Source: an uncultured Chloroflexia bacterium (lineage in GTDB: Bacteria > Chloroflexota > Ktedonobacteria > Ktedonobacterales > JADMIN01). From it: 32,000 nt of DNA. Location of the stretch: positions 960,001 to 992,000 of the forward strand of contig CAVRAI010000015.1 of NCBI GenBank assembly GCA_963718915.1. The letters are read 5' to 3'. Positions within the stretch are counted from its first letter, which is position 1; every line of letters begins with the position of its first letter. Position numbers and translations under genes: made by a program. Positions 10,781 through 29,261 of the stretch are shown here, one piece after another. The notes under the pieces are model-generated. The model was not told the origin of the DNA. It worked only from the letters and a program-made list of their open reading frames with translations, and made no database searches.

Positions 10781-11917
10781 TCAAAACATTTTGGCGAGCG
10801 CCTGGAAGAGGCGATCAACTTCCTCATGCGTGTTGTACAGATGCGGCGAGACACGTATCGCGTTGCCGCGAAAACTGACATAGATGCCCTCCGCCGCGAG
10901 TTGCTTGCTCAGGTCCGGCTGTAATGGGGCGCTGGAGCGCAGGCCAATCAGATGGCCAACACGTCGCTCGCCCGGCACAGGATCGAGGCCAACGCGGCGC
11001 GCGCCCTCTTCGATATGCGCTGTCAGTTCGCGTAGGGTCGCGGCAATCTCCTCAACGCGCCACTCCAGCAGTTGCCGCAGTGACGCGATGGCGATGGGCA
11101 TCAGCGCGAAGTTGGAGCGCTCGCCCATGTCATACCGTCGCGTGCCAGGCTGGAATGTATCACGGTAGTTGACGAGTCCGTTGAAGTCTTCGCTCTGCTC
11201 GCGCGTGATCCAGTTGGATTCCAGCGGCACACCCTCTCGCCAGCGGGGAGCAACATAGACAAAGCCCAGGCTATACGGGCCGAGAAGCCACTTATACGTC
11301 ACGGCGACGAGGAAGTCGGGTTGGATCTCTGCCACCGAGAAGGGATGCGCCCCAACCGATTGCGCGCCATCCACCACCAGCGCCGCGCCGACCGACCGCG
11401 CCCGCTCGCCGATGCGCGCCAGATCGATCAGGCTGCCGTCGGTCCAGTGGCAATGCGGGACGGCTACAATACCAGTGCGCTCGTCGATTTGCGCTAAAAG
11501 AGCCGCCGTCCAGTCGAAGTCGGGCGGTCGCAATACCGTGACGATGGTGGCTCCTGCGCGTGCGGCGAGATCGCGCCAGGGATAGACGTTCGAGGGGAAC
11601 TGGTCTTCCAGTAGCACGATGGTCTGTCCGCTGGCGAGGGGCAGATTTGCCGCCGCAAGGCCGATACCATAGCTGGCAGATGGGATAATCGCCACCCCAT
11701 CTCGGTCGCCGCCGATCAATTCGGCGAAGAGGCCGCGCGCCGTCTCAGACTCGCTAAAGAAGTCCTGAGCTGAGATTTTCCACGGCTCCGACTTGCGCGC
11801 CACCCCAGACTGTCCGGCTTCGCGTGAGGCACGTGGCAGGGGCGACATATACGAACAGTTCAAATAGGCGATTTCATCAGGAATATCGAACAGATTCCGT
11901 TGATTGGCCAGTGTCAC
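10781..11917 (-). CDS. Class V aminotransferase-fold PLP-dependent enzyme
   Basis: 378 aa with a GTG start preceded by aaggag. The segment DGAQSVGAHPFSVAEIQPDFLVAVTYKWLLGPYSLGFVYV holds the PLP-lysine context of cysteine-desulfurase/kynureninase-like class V enzymes. Confidence 0.8.
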   Translation of the reverse strand: MTLANQRNLFDIPDEIAYLNCSYMSPLPRASREAGQSGVARKSEPWKISAQDFFSESETARGLFAELIGGDRDGVAIIPSASYGIGLAAANLPLASGQTIVLLEDQFPSNVYPWRDLAARAGATIVTVLRPPDFDWTAALLAQIDERTGIVAVPHCHWTDGSLIDLARIGERARSVGAALVVDGAQSVGAHPFSVAEIQPDFLVAVTYKWLLGPYSLGFVYVAPRWREGVPLESNWITREQSEDFNGLVNYRDTFQPGTRRYDMGERSNFALMPIAIASLRQLLEWRVEEIAATLRELTAHIEEGARRVGLDPVPGERRVGHLIGLRSSAPLQPDLSKQLAAEGIYVSFRGNAIRVSPHLYNTHEEVDRLFQALAKMF

Positions 11918-12078
11918 AAGCGATCTCCTTTATACCATCGTCCACACGGCTTCCGCAGCGAGGCTCTTGAGCGCCATACCTGGAATTATCGCAAGAAAAC
12001 TGCGCAGTTCGCCACCACCAATTGTGCTATGCTGCGCTGGAATGTCTGGTGGAATGCTATAGACCCTGGGAGAATTCA

Positions 12079-13677
12079 GTGGCAGCGGATGCGCGCAGGA
12101 TAGTCGAGCGAGCAATCACGCGGGCGGCGCAGCGACACGCGCTCTGGACGCCGGGCGCGCGGCTGGTCGTCGCGGTCTCAGGTGGAGCTGATTCGCTGTG
12201 CCTGCTTGGCGCGCTGCTGGCGTTGCGCGACCGTGGGCATCGTCTCGCGCCGGGCGAGATCATCGTGGCGCATTTCGATCACGGGCTGCGGGGCGAAGAA
12301 AGCAGCGCGGACGCACGCTTTGTGCAACAGGTTGCCGCCGAAGTTGGCGCTCCATTCGTTCTTGGACAACCTGACGTCCCATACTCGACCGAACTGCGCG
12401 TCGGGATCGAGGATTGGGCGCGGCGAACGCGCTACGCCTTTCTGCGGCGGGTCGCAGTGGAGTATGAGGCCGAGCGCATCGTGACTGGCCACACGCACGA
12501 TGACCAGGCCGAGACGATTCTGTTGCACTGGCTACGTGGCAGCGGGCTGGCGGGCATGCGGGGCATGGCGCCCCTGCGCGGCGATATCGCGCGTCCGCTG
12601 CTCGACGTGACTCACGCGCAGACGATGGCCTACTGCACCGCGCTTGGGTGGACGCCGCGTGAGGATAGCAGCAACGCCGATCCGCGCTTTTTGCGCAACC
12701 GCATCCGCCACGAACTGCTGCCGCTGCTCGAAACCTACAATCCAGGCATCCGCGAACGCCTGGCGCGCAATGGTGAACTGCTGGCGGAGGATGAAGCGTA
12801 TCTGGAGGCACAGACTCAGGTAGCTTGGGCTGATGTGTCGGAGAGGCCATACCGGGGCGGCGTTCGACTGGACCGGAAGCTGACGCCTGAGCTACCGCCA
12901 GCGTTACGTCACCGGCTCTATCGCGCCGCCGTCCGCACGGTGAGCAATGGCGAAGTCACCCTGGAGGCGCGCCATATCACGGGGCTTGATAGGCAACTGT
13001 TGGATGGACATACGGGTAGCTTCCGGCGTCTTCCCGGAGGAATCAGCGCCATCATGAAGTATGACGCTCTGGTATTCCAGCAAGATGCCGCTTCAACTTC
13101 CGCGCGAGTTGGCTCTGGGCAGTCCGCGAAGGCGGACTTTGTGGCCGCAGGCCCTTCAGGCGCGGTTTCAACCGCCCGCGCTGGAAATCTCCCGCAGGCG
13201 TGGCAGCTTCCCGTGCCGGGCGCCGTCGCGTTGCCGGAGCTTGGCTGGCGCATCCGCGCGTGGCGCATCGAGGGCGCGCCGGGAAGCGAAGATGCCAGTG
13301 GATTGCCGCCCGCGCCCGCACTACCGTCACTCTCGTTTGCTGACCGGCCAGCCGAAATTGGCCGCGCTGAGTCACGTGTCTACCTGGATGCATCGACTAT
13401 CGGCGAAACGCTGACCGTGCGCGCGTGGCAGCCCGGCGACCGCTTCCGTCCGCTAGGCATGCGTGGCGAGAAGAAGCTACAAGACTACTTCAGCGACGCC
13501 AAGGCGCCGCGCGAGCTACGGGGGCGGCTGCCGCTTGTCTTCAACGCCGACCATCTGGTCTGGGTAGCTGGTCTGCGCATCGACGACCGCGTCCGCCTGA
13601 CGCCGACGACGCAGGCGGTGGTTGTGCTTCAATTGGAGCCGCTCACTGCTCCATCACACGGCGAAAGTAGCTGGTAA
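12079..13677 (+). CDS. tilS: tRNA(Ile)-lysidine synthetase
   Basis: The PP-loop LVVAVSGGADSLCL is followed by HFDHGLRGEES and HTHDDQAETILLHWLRGSG. The C-terminal TilS substrate-binding region reads WQPGDRFRPLGM...KKLQDYF. A likely start is GTG 12079 after gggaga, though the ORF is open from TTG 12022. Confidence 0.85.
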   Translation: MAADARRIVERAITRAAQRHALWTPGARLVVAVSGGADSLCLLGALLALRDRGHRLAPGEIIVAHFDHGLRGEESSADARFVQQVAAEVGAPFVLGQPDVPYSTELRVGIEDWARRTRYAFLRRVAVEYEAERIVTGHTHDDQAETILLHWLRGSGLAGMRGMAPLRGDIARPLLDVTHAQTMAYCTALGWTPREDSSNADPRFLRNRIRHELLPLLETYNPGIRERLARNGELLAEDEAYLEAQTQVAWADVSERPYRGGVRLDRKLTPELPPALRHRLYRAAVRTVSNGEVTLEARHITGLDRQLLDGHTGSFRRLPGGISAIMKYDALVFQQDAASTSARVGSGQSAKADFVAAGPSGAVSTARAGNLPQAWQLPVPGAVALPELGWRIRAWRIEGAPGSEDASGLPPAPALPSLSFADRPAEIGRAESRVYLDASTIGETLTVRAWQPGDRFRPLGMRGEKKLQDYFSDAKAPRELRGRLPLVFNADHLVWVAGLRIDDRVRLTPTTQAVVVLQLEPLTAPSHGESSW

Positions 13678-15658: not shown

Positions 15659-16399
15659 ATGACTGAAGACATCAATCGCAGGTTACACGATTCGCCAGAG
15701 TACCGGCAGGAACAGCTTTCCGCCGCGCTGGATGGGATGCTGGAGCCTGATGAGCAGGCCGCGTTGGATACGCATCTGGCTGGCTGCGAAACGTGTGCGC
15801 GCGAACTGGAGGAGCTACGTCAGGTGCGCCTGCTCTTGCGGGCTGTGCCAGAGCCAGCCCTGCCACGCTCGTTCCTGCTGCCGACCGAGGGCGAGTTGGT
15901 GGCGCCCCGTAGCCCCACGCGCCCCGCCGAGCGCACGCCAGCGACGAACATTACGCCGCTGCGTCAGCCGACACGCACCGCGACGCGCACGCTCCAGGTG
16001 ACACGCTGGATCGGCACGATTGCCGCCGTACTTGGCATGGCGCTCTTCCTCGGTACGCTTCTCATTCACCAAGGAGCCAACTACAGCACTAGCGCGCCAA
16101 ACTCCGGGCAATACGGCGGGCCGAATCCCGCTATCGGTGGCGGGACTGCCAATGGCGGGACGATTCCATCGCCGACGCACACGTTTTCCAGCGGTGGGAC
16201 TCAATCGACAGACAAAGCCGCTACTGCTACATCTTCGCCAACGCTTCCCGCGAAGAGTTCGGGAACTCCAGCGACGACGCTGGTCTCACCGTCGCCCAGC
16301 CCGACGTTCGGAGATATTCTGCGCACGGTGGCGCTCGTACTGCTCTTCGGCGGGATCGTGCTGGCGCTGGCGTCCTTCATCGTGGCGCGGCGGATATAG
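15659..16399 (+). CDS. Zinc-binding (ZAS, HxxxCxxC) anti-sigma factor, membrane protein with Thr/Ser/Pro-rich extracytoplasmic region
   Basis: LSAALDGMLEPDEQAALDTHLAGCETCARELEEL matches the zf-HC2 motif. TM segments are WIGTIAAVLGMALFLGTLLI and a C-terminal VALVLLFGGIVLALASFIV. It lies directly downstream of the ECF sigma gene. Confidence 0.8.
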   Translation: MTEDINRRLHDSPEYRQEQLSAALDGMLEPDEQAALDTHLAGCETCARELEELRQVRLLLRAVPEPALPRSFLLPTEGELVAPRSPTRPAERTPATNITPLRQPTRTATRTLQVTRWIGTIAAVLGMALFLGTLLIHQGANYSTSAPNSGQYGGPNPAIGGGTANGGTIPSPTHTFSSGGTQSTDKAATATSSPTLPAKSSGTPATTLVSPSPSPTFGDILRTVALVLLFGGIVLALASFIVARRI

Positions 16400-16417
16400 C
16401 GGCAGGTGGTTAAGGGC

Positions 16418-16511
16418 AAATTCGCCGTAGCGTGATGAACGTTCACGTTTTCTTCCCACCCCGTCGAGGTGGGGGTGGGGCAGGCCGTAGCATAAACGCT
16501 ACGGCGAATTT
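16418..16511. repeat. Nested inverted-repeat / hairpin cluster
   Basis: aaattcgccgtagcg (16418-16432) is the perfect reverse complement of cgctacggcgaattt (16497-16511). The enclosed sequence holds a 10-bp palindrome tgaacgttca (16436-16445) and a C/G hairpin (cccacc...ggtggg). It also holds a short hairpin gccgtagc-ataaac-gctacggc. Confidence 0.8.
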
Positions 16512-16562
16512 CCGGGGGTCTGCCCAATTCGCCGGGGCCTTCAGGCTCCGGCAGGCTCACCC
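16483..16562 (-). repeat. ~80-bp structured repeat, copy A (inverted relative to copy B at 18811-18892)
   Basis: The reverse complement of this segment aligns to 18811-18892. The first 21 nt gggtgagcc[t/a]gccggagcctg match 20/21. A shared gcgaatt follows, then a variable middle with indels. The last 27 nt attcgccgtagcgttta[t/c]gctacggc match 26/27. Confidence 0.75.
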
Positions 16563-16732
16563 TACTACACGGTTCGGGGTTTATGCGTAACAGTTCATCA
16601 ACCGCCCGCGCTTCTCACCCGTGCGTCTCGCAAACTCCGCGGCACGCGCCAAACAACACCCTTCCCTTCTAGCTGCCGATGGGCTACACTGTGCCTGCAA
16701 GCCATCACGCCGATACGCTGGAGGAAAAGCCG

Positions 16733-18030
16733 ATGACCGCCTATCGCAACGCCTTCGTCAGCCATGCCCATGCCAATAATGCTCAGTGCGATCCCTTTGT
16801 GGCTGCTTTCCAGCGTCGCGGCGTTAGCCTCTACTACGACCGCGCCGACCCACAGGTTGGCCACGACCTTGGCGAAGCATTGGAGCGTGAACTCGAGCGC
16901 GCCACGGCGCTGATCGTCATGGTCACTCCAGCTGCCCTTGCCTCCTTCTGGGTGCGCGAAGAGATCAGCATCTTCTTCGCCCTCATGGCGCGCGATCCCT
17001 CCCGGCTGCTTATCCCGATCAAATTGGAGGCGTGTGAACTGCCGCCACGTCTGGCGGCGCGCTGGTGGGTGGACGCTACAGATCTCGCGCCGAATGATGT
17101 GGTGGATCAGGTAGTTCAGGCGCTTGCAATAGGGGCGCAGGATCCATCTCTCCCGGTATCCTCACCACCGCGTGATACCCTGCCGCCGCTCGGCCCGGCG
17201 CCCGCGCCCGCCAACAGCGCGCCCGCCCACCACCTGACGCCAATGCCGCTCTACACCCTCGGCTTTCGCGGCTACACCATCGCCGGCGTTGAGTGCATCC
17301 TGCCGCCCATCTGCCCCGTGCCTGGCAGCGTCTTCACTATGGGCAGCGACAAGACCCGCGACAAAGAGGCGCGCGACAACGAGACGCCGCAGTATCCGGT
17401 CGAAGTGGACGCCTTCGCTATCGGTCAGCACCCGGTCACCGTCGCCGAGTATGCCTGCGCCGTTCGCGCGAAAGCAGTGCGCGAGCCGCACGACAATGGG
17501 AACATCGATGTAGACTGGGCGAAGCAGCAGACGCATCCTGACCATCCGGTGGTCTGCGTCTCCTGGAACGATGCGCTCGCCTACACGCCTGGCTGGCGAA
17601 GACGACGGGGCAGGGCTGGCGGCTGCCGAGCGAGGCGGAGTGGGAGAAGGCGGCGCGCGGGACAGATGGGCGCATCTATCCCTGGGGCGACGAATTCGAC
17701 AAAGCGCGCTGCAACACCCACGAGAGCGGCATCGGAACGACCACGCCCGTCGGGCGTTATCCCAACGGCGAGAGTCCCTATCATGTCCAGGACATGACGG
17801 GCAACGTCTGGGAGTGGACAAGCAGCCTCTTCCAGCCCTATCCCTACCGCAAAAACGACGGACGAGAGAATCCAAATTCTACTGATAATCGAGTGCTTCG
17901 TGGCGGTTCGTGGTACGGCGGCTCCAGGAACGCGCGCGCGGCCTACCGCCTCGGCGACAGGCCGGACCACTTCTACAACGACGTAGGGTTTCGGCTCGCT
18001 CTGGCGCGTGCGGGGGCTGGTTCAGCATAA
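16733..18030 (+). pseudogene. TIR domain / FGE-sulfatase (C-type-lectin fold) fusion; DGR target gene, interrupted by a 1-nt frameshift near 17588-17590
   Basis: ATG 16733 follows SD ggagga. The TIR-like N-terminus is AFVSHAHANNAQCDPFVAAFQRRGVSLYYD...LIVMVTPAALASFWVREEI, which carries the SxWxxxE motif. The FGE-sulfatase domain follows (PGSVFTMGSDK...ETPQYPVEVDAFAIGQHPVTVAEYA...HPVVCVSWNDALAY). The domain then continues only in the frame offset by 2: WLAKTTGQGWRLPSEAEWEKAARGTDGRIYPWGDEF...MTGNVWEWTSS...[38 protein letters not shown], ending at stop 18028-18030. Confidence 0.85.
17892..18016 (+). repeat. DGR variable repeat (VR) at the 3' end of the TIR/FGE-sulfatase gene
   Basis: This 125-bp segment aligns without gaps to 18370-18494. 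It has 13 mismatches, all opposite adenines of the other copy. It ends in a 31-nt adenine-free G/C-rich block (gggtttcggctcgctctggcgcgtgcggggg), after which the two copies diverge. Confidence 0.9.
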
Positions 18031-18059
18031 TCCTCTGGTTCTGATTTCTGTTTTCCATT

Positions 18060-18065
18060 TATAAT
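18060..18065 (+). promoter_or_regulatory. Candidate -10 box (TATAAT) in the AT-rich spacer upstream of the TR
   Basis: A perfect tataat sits inside a ~70-nt stretch of about 34% GC by my count, in a window of about 60% GC. Only a weak -35 is present (ttctga/ggttct). Confidence 0.3.
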
Positions 18066-18369
18066 AGAATGAACATGATAGTAGAAGTAGAGAGGTGGAA
18101 TGTGTTTCTGGTCGCGCGCAGCGCGGAAAAATTTGGAGAAATCTCACAGCTCGCTATCAGGCGAAAGCCAAGCAATGTATTGCTGGTGGCGTGAACAGGG
18201 ATACCAAAAGCCGCTCTTCAAAGGTATGTTCGTTGCGCATGCGCGCTGTAAAGCCCCGCTAAAGTCCTGCCCATGAACTTGCGGAGCGATCCGCCTCGTC
18301 GTAATGATTGCGGTGAGCGCGCGGGAGGTCGCTCCTCCTTGCGCGCGCTCCGTGGGGCAGACCGAACCC

Positions 18370-18494
18370 AGTGCTTCGTGGCGGTTCGTGGAACAACAAC
18401 TCCAGGAACGCGCGCGCGGCCTACCGCAACGACAACAGGCCGGACAACTTCAACAACAACGAAGGGTTTCGGCTCGCTCTGGCGCGTGCGGGGG
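18370..18494 (+). repeat. DGR template repeat (TR), non-coding, AAC-rich
   Basis: It contains 28 adenines and 10 AAC codons in the VR-equivalent register (aacaacaac, aacgacaac, aacttcaacaacaacgaa). All 97 non-A positions are identical to the VR, while 13 of the 28 A positions differ. The ORFs overlapping it (18273..18572, 18371..18607 and antisense 18218..18565) look like by-products of the repeat. Confidence 0.9.
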
Positions 18495-18705
18495 ATGATC
18501 CAGCGTTTCCGGCCAGTAAATCCGCACGAGTCCCGCTTGCGGGAGATCGACGGACGCGGCCCCATATGCTGAACCAGCGCGGTCTTGTCCCGGCTGAGGC
18601 CAGATGACGCCGTACACGTCCATGTGGCCAGCTAAATATAAAATATGCCTGCCTCCCGCAACCGACTGAAAACGTCGGCAATAACGGCTGTGTGGTGTGT
18701 CACCC

Positions 18706-18735
18706 CTGCCGCGATGCGCGGGGCAGACGCTTTTT
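18706..18735 (+). terminator. Intrinsic-terminator-like hairpin plus T5 run downstream of the TR
   Basis: The stem is ctgccgcg / atg / cgcggggcag, 8 bp with a 2-nt bulge. It is followed after 4 nt by ttttt (18731-18735). Confidence 0.4.
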
Positions 18736-18810
18736 CCTTGTGCGATCCACCTCACCAGGAGTACACCCCGCGCCATCAAAGCGTACCGATTAACTCCGAA
18801 CAGCGTGCTG

Positions 18811-18892
18811 GGGTGAGCCAGCCGGAGCCTGCCAGCGAATTTCCGCCCTCAAGTGACGCTCTGCTCATTCGCCGTAGCGTTTACGCTACGGC
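18811..18892 (+). repeat. ~80-bp structured repeat, copy B (inverted partner of 16483-16562)
   Basis: The sequence is gggtgagccagccggagcctg...gcgaattt...cattcgccgtagcgtttacgctacggc. It contains the internal hairpin gccgtagc-gtttac-gctacggc and the gcgaat/attcgc arms. Confidence 0.75.
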
Positions 18893-18989
18893 TTGCCGCG
18901 CCCGCCACGGCGCATGGTGTTCGGAATAAAACGCCCGCGCTCCTACAACCGCCCGCCCCCGCTCGCCATCACGACGCCTCTGCGTCCCC

Positions 18990-19493
18990 TCACACGATAT
19001 CGGCGTCGCCAGTCAGCACGCGCTCGCCGCGCTGATTCTCGATCCACACATCGGCCTGTCGCGGCTTGTCCGGCTCGGCTGCTCGCAGCACTCCCTTGCA
19101 CGTGAGCGTATCGCCTGGACGCACCATCGCCTGGAAGCGCACCCGCAGCCTCCCCAGCCGTCCGTGGCCTGGAGCGGCTGTGAGCCAGTCGGTCAGCGCC
19201 TGCCCCGCGAACGCCATACTGAGCATGCCGTGGGCAATCGTACCGTCGAGGCCAACCGAACGCGCAACATCAGGGTTGATGTGGATGGGGTTGTGATCGC
19301 CGCTGACATCGGCATAGGCGTCAATCTGCGCCTGCGTCACCGTCTTGATCAGCGCTGGTAATGGCTCGCCCTCGCGCTCCTTCGCCGGTTTGCTGGCTGC
19401 GGTTGCGGTCGCGGCGGTTTCCCCGGCACGATGTCGCGCACGATGATCGTCGCCTTCCCCGTGACCGCGCGCTCGCCCGTGGCGGTATCGCAT
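18990..19493 (-). CDS. MaoC-like (R)-specific enoyl-CoA hydratase / dehydratase hotdog domain
   Basis: VTQAQIDAYADVSGDHNPIHINPDVARSVGLDGTIAHGMLSMAF is the MaoC dehydratase signature. The only in-frame start (ATG 19493) gives an odd Arg/His-rich N-terminus that overlaps the upstream gene by 145 nt, so the true 5' end is doubtful. Confidence 0.7.
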   Translation of the reverse strand: MRYRHGRARGHGEGDDHRARHRAGETAATATAASKPAKEREGEPLPALIKTVTQAQIDAYADVSGDHNPIHINPDVARSVGLDGTIAHGMLSMAFAGQALTDWLTAAPGHGRLGRLRVRFQAMVRPGDTLTCKGVLRAAEPDKPRQADVWIENQRGERVLTGDADIV

Positions 19494-27839: not shown

Positions 27840-28508
27840 ATGTCTACGACGCGGCTACATTTCATTCGCCACGGCGAATCGTACTCCAATGTGCCGCACG
27901 AAGGCAGAGTCGTCTCGGGCATGCACGGCGATAAGGGGCTGACACCTCACGGCGTTGCCCAGGTGGAGCGGCTGCGCGACCGGCTGCTGGCGACGGATGA
28001 GCTTGCCGCCGATGTTGTGTTGGCGAGCACATTGCCGCGCGCCGGGCAGACCGCCGAGATTCTCGCGCCCGTCTGGGACTCGCCTATCCTCTCCGACGAC
28101 GACTTGCACGAGCTACGTCCCGGCGAGTCGGATGGCCTGCCGGTCGCGGTGGCCCGCGAGCGCTATGGCTATACCGACTTTGCGGAGTGGGCCTATCGCC
28201 CAAAGTCGCCCGGAGGCGAGACCTGGGGCATGTTCGTTTTGCGCGTTGGCACGATGCTCGACCGCGTTACGCGCGACTACGCGGGCAAGACCATCGTGCT
28301 TATCACCTCCGGCGGCGTCATTCATGCGACGTTTCTCGTCTTCTTCGCCCTGCCATCGCTTCAGCCGCCACATGCATGGTTCGCCACCGAAAATGCCAGT
28401 ATCACCAGCTGGGAGCAACGTCCCTGGCGCAATCAGCCGTCCGTCTGGACGCTGCTGCGTTATAATGACACGTCGCACCTGAACGATCAGCAGCGGTATA
28501 TGACATGA
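27840..28508 (+). CDS. Histidine phosphatase (phosphoglycerate mutase) family protein, paralog 1
   Basis: LHFIRHGESYSN carries the RHG catalytic motif. Other family segments are GLTPHGVAQVERLRDRL, ASTLPRAGQTAEIL and TSGGVIHA. Confidence 0.85.
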   Translation: MSTTRLHFIRHGESYSNVPHEGRVVSGMHGDKGLTPHGVAQVERLRDRLLATDELAADVVLASTLPRAGQTAEILAPVWDSPILSDDDLHELRPGESDGLPVAVARERYGYTDFAEWAYRPKSPGGETWGMFVLRVGTMLDRVTRDYAGKTIVLITSGGVIHATFLVFFALPSLQPPHAWFATENASITSWEQRPWRNQPSVWTLLRYNDTSHLNDQQRYMT

Positions 28509-28529: not shown

Positions 28530-29261
28530 ATGACGCATCTTTACCTCATTCGCCACGGCGAGGCATACTCCAACATCGAGCTTGATGGCAACGGCACGGT
28601 GCCAGGGCTGCGCGGCGACAAAGGGCTAACCCCACGCGGACGTGCCCAGGCAGAGCGCTTGCGCGACCGGTTGGCCCGCAGCGGCGAGATTCGTGCCAAT
28701 GCGCTACTCGCCAGCACTCTCCCCCGCGCCTGGCAGACCGCCGAGATCATCGCTCCCGCGTTTGGTCTGCCGATCATTCCCGACGACGACCTGCAAGAGA
28801 TGCGCGCGGGCGATGAGGTCGATGGCATGACCGAGCGCGACCTGTTGGAACGCTATACGATCCCCGACTACCGGGAGACGCCCTATGCGCACATTGCTCC
28901 CGACGGCGAGAACTGGGGTGAGTTCATCCTGCGGGTTGGCACGATGTTCGACCGGGTGACGCGCGCATACGCCGACCAGACAGTGGCGCTGGTGACGCAC
29001 GGTGGAGTCATTGACGCCTCGATCATGATCTTCTTCCAGATCCATACGCTTACGGTGCCGCCGTTTGCGCTCTACACGCACAACACCGCGATTACTGAGT
29101 GGGAGTTGGAGCAAAGCGATGGCTTTCGCGAGCGAGCGACCGGGCCGTCTCGCTGGCGGCTGGTACACTACAACGACGACTACCACATCCGCGAGATACC
29201 CGACCATGCTGAGTCGTCTCCGCACTCCGCTGCGGAGGCGATGGAAGGCGGCGATTCCTGA
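28530..29261 (+). CDS. Histidine phosphatase (phosphoglycerate mutase) family protein, paralog 2
   Basis: LYLIRHGEAYSN, GLTPRGRAQAERLRDRL, ASTLPRAWQTAEII and THGGVIDA are collinear with the upstream paralog. Confidence 0.85.
   Translation: MTHLYLIRHGEAYSNIELDGNGTVPGLRGDKGLTPRGRAQAERLRDRLARSGEIRANALLASTLPRAWQTAEIIAPAFGLPIIPDDDLQEMRAGDEVDGMTERDLLERYTIPDYRETPYAHIAPDGENWGEFILRVGTMFDRVTRAYADQTVALVTHGGVIDASIMIFFQIHTLTVPPFALYTHNTAITEWELEQSDGFRERATGPSRWRLVHYNDDYHIREIPDHAESSPHSAAEAMEGGDS

Follow-up and report, generated by a model that had tools for sequence, protein, structure and literature searches.

A Ktedonobacterales Diversity-Generating Retroelement Cassette That Keeps Its Template Repeat and Spacer RNA but Lacks Reverse Transcriptase and Avd

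Introduction

The reverse transcriptase (RT) is the defining component of a diversity-generating retroelement (DGR). How, then, is a locus to be read that carries the paired repeats of a DGR and lacks the enzyme? This question is raised by a stretch of 32,000 nucleotides (contig CAVRAI010000015.1 of assembly GCA_963718915.1, positions 960,001 to 992,000, forward strand) from an uncultured Chloroflexia bacterium of the Ktedonobacterales, hereafter the window. An earlier note on this DNA had pointed out two 125-bp segments, a variable repeat (VR) at the 3' end of a gene for a protein with an FGE-sulfatase/C-type-lectin fold and a template repeat (TR) downstream of it, and had taken them for the signature of a DGR. 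We find that the two repeats are a genuine DGR pair and that the locus is by origin a DGR cassette, that the window encodes neither RT nor the second DGR protein, Avd, and that the locus is probably a young relic whose protein machinery was lost recently.

Results and Discussion

Pairwise alignment joins VR and TR (coordinates of the features are collected in Table 1) over 125 nt without a gap and leaves 13 mismatches, at each of which the TR has an adenine (13/13). The TR is composed of 28 A, 41 G, 38 C and 18 T, and at none of its 97 non-adenine positions does the VR differ; the hypergeometric probability of 13 mismatches all landing on the 28 adenines is P = 2.4e-10. Seven of the changes from TR to VR are A-to-G, four A-to-T and two A-to-C. 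Read in the frame of the upstream gene, eight differences fall on the first codon position, five on the second and none on the third; the number of codons that differ between the repeats is ten, as is the number of in-frame AAC codons in the TR. The final 31 nt of the repeat are free of adenine. Similarity ends sharply on the upstream side, and downstream, beyond repeat position 125, it passes through short flanks, CTGGTTCAGC on the VR side and ATGATCCAGC on the TR side (7/10 identical, two of the three mismatches being at TR adenines), before the sequences diverge. A GC-rich 3' end with distinct initiation of mutagenic homing sequences, IMH for the VR and IMH* for the TR, is present, and the difference between CTGGTTCAGC and ATGATCCAGC is conserved in the relative L001 described below. 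A search of the whole window returned no further copy of the repeat.

The earlier note had described the repeats accurately. Exact alignment and recounting reproduce its gap-free 125 bp, its 28 template adenines of which 13 are altered while 0/97 other positions are, its ten AAC codons in the downstream copy and its 31-nt adenine-free block followed by diverging ends; its chance figure of about 1e-9 is of the right order of magnitude; no coding homology was found around the downstream copy, which it had called non-coding; its assignment of the upstream copy to the C-terminal segment of an FGE-sulfatase domain agrees with the Pfam match given below; and tabulating the mismatches by TR base, by which it had proposed to test its reading, gives 0 at non-adenine positions. 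What it overlooked are the absence of an RT, a break in the reading frame some 300 nt upstream of the VR and a pair of 150-nt inverted repeats.

The closest homologue with genomic context is locus L001, from a metagenome-assembled genome (MAG) of the Ktedonobacterales, whose target protein is 77% identical to that of the window. Here the order is target gene with VR (11170-11294), RT (11400-12512, with the motifs IGNQTSQ and YVDD), Avd and TR (12985-13109), the Avd, as reconstructed, matching NCBIfam NF033474 with 85 bits at a cut-off of 80. Blastn aligns window 16661-18049 with L001 9929-11318 (82.5% identity) and window 18327-18738 with L001 12942-13343 (84%); between these blocks L001 has 1,623 nt encoding RT and Avd, against 277 unrelated bases in the window. 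Homology to L001 covers both flanks of the TR, 43 nt before it and 244 nt after it being 84-90% identical. The order target-RT-(Avd)-TR returns in 12 further relatives, genomic and metagenomic, where VR and TR are spaced 1.65-2.2 kb apart; the spacing in the window is 478 nt. The exact TR-flank pattern ATCCAGCGTTTCCGGCCAGTAA gave 0 matches in a metagenome scan. It may be added that the Avd gene of L001 (12480-12910) is split by a frameshift in what is a short-read assembly, and that the L001 VR has two non-adenine mismatches to its TR.

Comparison of the two loci also bears on the direction in which sequence has been copied. The TR of the window differs from that of L001 at 12 non-adenine sites, and at 12/12 of these each VR carries the base of its own TR; in addition, VR and TR of the window share 10 nt, inserted close to the 3' end, that neither L001 repeat has. 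Since the VRs mirror their own TRs in this way, TR-to-VR transfer must really have occurred, and the directional flow of information from TR to VR by which a DGR is recognised is found at this locus. The concerted change of VR and TR postdates the split between the window and L001 lineages and bears the mark of repeated TR-to-VR copying rather than shared ancestry. We conclude that VR and TR are a genuine DGR pair and that the locus derives from a DGR, because the mismatches are restricted to adenines, the target has the C-type-lectin/FGE-sulfatase fold, the TR of L001 lies beside RT and Avd, and the VR follows its own TR. These same lines of evidence, namely adenine-only mismatches, lectin fold, RT-bearing relative and TR-specific bases in the VR, back the proposal of the earlier note that adenine-specific retrohoming produced the pattern.

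The protein machinery itself is missing. No RT was detected in the window by Pfam, by tblastn with the L001 RT or, at maximum sensitivity in six frames over the 32 kb, by a clade-specific profile hidden Markov model (HMM) built from 117 sequences, and a DGR-type RT with IGxxxSQ and YxDD motifs is absent alongside the TR. Avd is likewise not found in the window. The filler that stands in place of the two genes has no homology to L001 11319-12941 in a blastn comparison, and its open reading frames (ORFs), of 55 and 58 aa, match no family; its first ~110 nt are similar to sequence that follows an RT-less paralogue (L007). Beyond the window, none of the best 120 RT homologues (at least 60% identity) lies on the source contig. 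Two candidates for an RT were rejected. A stretch at 18110-18160 that by eye is reminiscent of RT N-termini receives no support from tblastn, the maximum-sensitivity clade HMM or NCBIfam, and an ORF at 2027-2539 matches Pfam RVT_3 and RNase H and is an RNase H-fold domain, no polymerase and unrelated to DGRs. As a separate observation, the 58-aa ORF of the filler (18100-18276) is preceded by a Shine-Dalgarno-like GAGAGGTGGA at a position that corresponds to the RT start codon in L001; no RT similarity is detectable in it.

The target gene combines a TIR_2 domain (~16754-17086, E = 7.9e-19) with an FGE-sulfatase domain that Pfam finds in two parts, the 5' part from ~17315 (profile positions 7-105 of 255, E = 3.3e-14) and the 3' part covering profile positions 109-254 of 255 (E = 3.5e-32). 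The VR lies at the extreme C-terminus of the latter and makes up the last 41 codons ahead of AGSA-stop; the frame-1 translation of the 3' segment reads WLAKTTGQGWRLPSEAEWEKAARG. The two parts are in different frames, 285 N-terminal codons being separated from 147 C-terminal codons by a 1-nt deletion, and the 5' segment is represented by protein P0005 (100% identity). Programmed frameshifting can be rejected, in that the shift would have to sit at 17585/17586 to retain the conserved residues and no slippery heptamer is present at that site; because of this, the frameshift is either a deletion or a base-calling error. The source contig also encodes a paralogue with TIR and FGE-sulfatase domains, P0086, whose corresponding domain region is interrupted by at least two single-base frameshifts; in both paralogues all frameshifts are single-base deletions. 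In about 27 other ORFs of the window, proteins of 1170, 709 and 559 aa included, the domains are matched over nearly their full length and 0 genes are split; frameshifts are therefore concentrated in the TIR-FGE family. The read-through tail of P0086 hints at a 3' flank resembling the 277-nt filler of the window.

Proteins with TIR and FGE-sulfatase domains number in the thousands, and those closest to the target come from the Ktedonobacterales (Chloroflexota), where the family is abundant. Pfam TIR_2 places a TIR domain in fusion with a variable ligand-binding domain, and PADLOC adds weak matches of this TIR to its SAVED_TIR and ThsB TIR models. The target looks cytoplasmic, no signal peptide or transmembrane segment being evident, and the N-terminal TIR domain may act as effector and the C-terminal FGE-sulfatase/C-type-lectin domain as putative sensor.

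In contrast to RT and Avd, the RNA-level parts of the cassette are preserved. The region downstream of the TR corresponds to the spacer (Sp) of the Bordetella phage DGR and, across nine elements of the RT clade, keeps the motifs CCGGCCAGTAAA, GAACCAGCGCGG..TCCYGGCTGAGG and GGCCAGCYAAATAYAAAA. In the same nine elements the structure given in Table 1 pairs 91.5% of cells, against 20-46% when the partners are slid; six of the 13 pairs are changed on both sides, and 0/500 shuffles reach the observed covariation score. Resting on nine sequences only, covariation lends the proposed spacer RNA structure moderate support. No Rfam family reaches its gathering score in the window, and a scan of 16300-19100 for promoters and terminators found nothing, including no promoter-like site for a TR RNA.

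Within this region lies a block, UAUGCUGAACCAGC (TATGCTGAACCAGC), that is exactly complementary (14/14) to the VR 3' flank, GCTGGTTCAGCATA; scored for complementarity, the block reaches 14 with the VR flank and 5.5 with the TR flank. In other elements a block at the same place, 60-70 nt after the TR, is complementary to the respective VR flank over 11/11 (L001), 12/13 (L034), 13/14 (L084), 12/12 (L097), 9/10 (L087) and 8/8 (L100) positions, and the sequences differ from element to element. In a 13 x 13 comparison, blocks score on average 8.6 with their own VR flank, 5.7 ± 1.3 in cross pairs and 5.4 with the TR's own flank. When the closely related window and L001 are entered as one, leaving 12 elements, 0/20,000 permutations reach the observed total complementarity. 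The block thus covaries with the VR-specific 3' flank and not with that of the TR, which supports pairing between an RNA primer and the IMH. That idea is a published one: for phage BPP-1, Naorem et al. 2017 (PMC5703328) described a cDNA-linked RNA primer whose pairing with IMH is more extensive than that with IMH*, and they put this forward as the cause of directionality. The present data are independent comparative support for it, in that a covarying block is what one would expect if an RNA primer attached to the cDNA (complementary DNA) pairs with the IMH and so sets the direction of homing.

The priming adenosine of the window is probably A18576, within a conserved C(C/U)AGCGCGG motif, by analogy with the priming site of BPP-1, Sp C55-A56-G57-C58 (PMC5703328). 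Pairing of A18576 with U18496 and of C18575 with G18497 would start the cDNA opposite A18495, precisely where VR/TR identity ends, and primer RNA plus cDNA would then read as the bottom strand of the VR plus its flank. The mechanism of cDNA integration was still described as unknown in 2026 (PMC12875486). In BPP-1 a DNA stem-loop downstream of the IMH is an efficiency element; directly downstream of the IMH no stable hairpin is found here (z = -1.3 for the window and +1.7 for L001). Its place is taken by TCTGR-type short repeats, which likewise follow the target's stop codon in every family member, among them L001 (11300-11330), L030, L034, L049 and L080.

The whole cassette of target and TR is enclosed by inverted repeats, in each of which lies a 10-bp hairpin (GCCGTAGCRT..ACGCTACGGC) whose core occurs in the window solely at these two sites. 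The repeats may be MITE-like (miniature inverted-repeat transposable element), as at other DGR loci. They were not accepted as a proven transposon, since no target-site duplication was found at them and no copies occur in 83 related loci. A 16-nt partial copy of the inverted repeat is present at 16418-16433.

These features can be brought together in one scheme. The ancestral unit would have consisted of a TIR-FGE target gene ending in the VR, RT, Avd, and TR with its structured spacer RNA. The TR RNA would fold such that an adenosine of the spacer primes reverse transcription at the TR 3' end, the RT would misincorporate opposite TR adenines, and the RNA-linked cDNA would replace the VR, positioned by pairing of the primer block with the VR-specific 3' flank; the adenine-only differences between VR and TR would be the product of such homing. 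A deletion or replacement would then have removed RT and Avd and left 277 unrelated bases, and the target would have lost one nucleotide. With RT and Avd gone and the target 1 nt short, the locus cannot diversify itself, is presumably inactive today and is most likely a young relic. We hold this reading, a chromosomal DGR cassette that lost its protein machinery recently, to be the probable one, with real room for doubt, because the target is disrupted, its paralogue P0086 is disrupted too, no RT of at least 60% identity is recorded on the source contig, and the layout of a TR-bearing locus without RT does not recur in the clade. The DGR assignment of the earlier note therefore stands as to origin and falls as to state: the active element that it implied is not borne out by a locus with no RT or Avd in 32 kb and a frameshifted target.

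Several points speak against a relic. VR and TR are identical at 97/97 non-adenine sites and the 14-nt block matches perfectly, so that the last homing was very recent or is ongoing; taken together with a frame that is otherwise open, this lack of decay means that either the loss is recent or homing continues. All RNA-level elements are intact, as would be expected of a cassette that is served in trans. The search for an RT in six frames covered the 32-kb window, and an RT elsewhere, or strain variants bearing one in the same population, could exist. Finally, the frameshift in the target may reflect a wrong base call of a long-read assembly, an objection countered by the ~27 unsplit genes of the window.

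The same facts lend weight to a first alternative, the strongest of three, in which the cassette is a non-autonomous satellite DGR still diversified in trans by RT and Avd encoded elsewhere in the genome or in strain variants. TR and its 5' flank, the three covarying helices, the 14/14 primer block and the terminal stem with its U-run would all have been kept for use, and no decay is seen at the 97 non-adenine positions; there is also precedent in Thiohalocapsa, where RT-less loci are diversified in trans and RT+ and RT- variants occur within one population (PMC10907252). Yet none of the best 120 homologues places an RT at least 60% identical to the cognate clade on the source contig, and none comes from the same type of source, the window is the sole TR and VR pair without an adjacent RT when set against the 83 related loci, so that a satellite layout is no habit of the clade, diversification would miss a functional protein as long as the target is frameshifted, and the promoter scan revealed no site from which the TR RNA would be transcribed. 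We regard service in trans as possible but doubtful. A variant of it, a satellite DGR complete in cis and mobilised in trans, whose inverted repeats might render the unit transposable, would make the preservation of the cis elements a sign of function and not of youth; this we consider somewhat more doubtful still.

A second alternative holds that the element is intact in the organism and that the absence of RT and Avd, like the frameshift, was introduced by assembly or consensus building in a MAG that is probably of long reads, for instance by collapse onto a minority structural variant or by indel errors. The source record, a 1.04-Mb contig, resembles in type the long-read MAGs among the relatives, the frameshifts of both paralogues are single-base deletions, the usual long-read error, and structural variants at DGR loci within one population have been published (PMC10907252). 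Against this, the 277-nt filler is a specific sequence, shared in part with the region downstream of the RT-less paralogue, and does not result from simple collapse; the ~27 other genes of the window are unsplit, and RT loss has occurred naturally in three other lineages. Such an artefact seems improbable. That the pair is not DGR-derived at all, the downstream copy being a mere fragment of an FGE-sulfatase paralogue that differs at adenines by chance, finds some footing in the multi-copy nature of the TIR-FGE family, of which the source contig carries two or more paralogues and a related genome three loci. It is hardly credible, being refuted by P = 2.4e-10, by paralogues that vary at all four bases, and by a TR that is AAC-rich, has no coding homology around it and is orthologous to the L001 TR beside RT and Avd.

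Loss of the protein machinery, on which the relic reading depends, can be followed within the clade. The comparison set comprises 83 target-related loci from species-representative genomes other than the source, and in this set every TR/VR pair is accompanied by an RT. Two loci syntenic with L001, L002 and L003 (target 83% identical), lack both RT and TR. In L011, a related MAG (11130-11420), the VR runs straight into the sequence that normally follows the TR, with the junction CTGGTT|CCAGCG inside the short flank homology; the arrangement results from a crossover of VR with TR, by which RT, Avd and TR were deleted. One clade thus displays a series of decay, from L001 with a complete element (which may be decaying too), through the window with RT and Avd deleted and TR kept and the crossover of L011, to L002 where everything is lost. 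A clean adenine-only TR/VR pair is no proof of a working retroelement, since the enzyme can be gone. L006 and L010, paralogues in the genome of L001, were considered as remote targets of its TR and rejected, as their non-adenine sites disagree with it; extra TR-like matches in L008, L072 and L074 are accounted for by coding sequence of paralogues or by a second VR.

How does the locus compare with known systems? Its mechanism is that of the prototype, BPP-1 (mtd-avd-TR-brt), with which it shares adenine-specific TR-to-VR transfer at positions 1 and 2 of AAC codons, a VR at the C-terminus of a protein with C-type-lectin fold, a GC-rich 3' end followed by near-identical yet distinct IMH/IMH* flanks, a structured spacer RNA after the TR with a CAGC-type priming motif, and an RNA primer with greater complementarity to the flank of the VR than to that of the TR, as proposed for BPP-1 (PMC5703328). 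It departs from BPP-1 in the gene order of its clade, target-RT-Avd-TR instead of target-avd-TR-RT, in having no stable DNA stem-loop after the VR, in being chromosomal with a cytoplasmic-looking TIR-fusion target instead of a phage tail fibre, and in lacking RT and Avd. The fold of the target is of the FGE-sulfatase/TvpA type: as in Treponema denticola TvpA and other FGS-type variable proteins (PMC7159879), the domain belongs to the FGE-sulfatase subtype of the C-type-lectin fold and the VR forms the C-terminal ligand-binding face. In FGS-type DGR variable proteins other domains are always N-terminal to the lectin fold (PMC7159879); in the window this partner is a TIR domain, whereas TvpA is a surface lipoprotein.

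Closest in condition are the degenerate or remote DGR loci of Thiohalocapsa sp. PB-PSB1, which lack RT and have MITE-like repeats (Doré et al. 2024, PMC10907252) and whose description the window locus matches. Common to both are a VR that is kept while RT is lacking, MITE-like inverted repeats at the loci, conflict-system effector domains on the targets, TIR (PF13676) included, a multicellular or filamentous host lineage, and identity of VR and TR at all non-adenine sites. Unlike those loci, the window locus retains its own TR and spacer RNA with RT and Avd gone, and its target is a minimal two-domain protein of TIR and C-type lectin, without NTPase or vWA module. Earlier work (Doré et al. 2024, PMC10907252; Kaur et al. 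2020) describes filamentous Chloroflexi hosts, TIR targets, RT-less degenerate loci and MITE-like repeats at DGR loci, and a target that joins TIR to a lectin fold agrees with publications in which such DGRs are seen as diversifying putative antigen sensors of filamentous or multicellular bacteria. Modestly new here are the retention by a locus of its own TR and spacer RNA once RT and Avd are lost, and the covariation evidence for primer-IMH pairing.

Table 1. Features of the DGR cassette and its surroundings, in window coordinates
Feature	Position	Strand	Remarks
Inverted repeat, left copy	16441-16590	+	~150 nt, imperfect; contains hairpin GCCGTAGCATAAACGCTACGGC
Target gene, 5' segment	16733-17585	+	starts MTAYRN, GGAGGA upstream; TIR_2, Pro-rich linker, first part of FGE-sulfatase
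Frameshift site	17585/17586	+	1 base fewer than homologues (GCCTACA-CGCCTGG; alignment with L001 and L002)
Target gene, 3' segment	17587-18030	+	remaining FGE-sulfatase/C-type-lectin domain, ends in VR; stop TAA 18028-18030
Variable repeat (VR)	17892-18016	+	13 differences from TR, all on TR adenines, altering 10 codons
VR 3' flank (IMH-like), GCTGGTTCAGCATA	18016-18029	+	last VR base and 3' flank; perfectly complementary to 18565-18578
TCTGR-type short repeats, CTCTGGTTCTGATTTCTG	18033-18050	+	just past the stop codon, in place of the BPP-1 DNA stem-loop
Filler in place of RT and Avd	18050-18326	+	277 nt, more A+T-rich, small ORFs only
TR 5' flank, conserved	18327-18369	+	equals Avd-TR intergenic region of L001; homology resumes at L001 12942, 43 nt before TR
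Template repeat (TR)	18370-18494	+	non-coding, 28 adenines, 10 in-frame AAC; homologous to L001 TR
Structured RNA region	18495-18738	+	equivalent to spacer (Sp) of Bordetella phage DGR; 90% identity with L001
Spacer RNA helices	18511-18514/18558-18561; 18521-18524/18551-18554; 18592-18596/18629-18633	+	compensatory changes
Putative primer block, UAUGCUGAACCAGC (TATGCTGAACCAGC)	18565-18578	+	exact reverse complement of 18016-18029, 14/14
Spacer RNA A-rich motif	18634-18645	+	
Spacer RNA 3' end	~18649-18735	+	GC-rich stem, then TTTTT
Inverted repeat, right copy	18780-18940	-	reverse complement 78% identical to left copy

According to Pfam matches of all large ORFs, the cassette stands among housekeeping genes, with an ECF sigma/anti-sigma pair on its upstream side and genes for MaoC-type dehydratases, Pth and Mfd on its downstream side. 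Further along the window stand tandem paralogues of His_Phos_1 (histidine phosphatase) at 27840-28508 and 28530-29261, which share DNA blocks of 59-65 nt with 71-77% identity.

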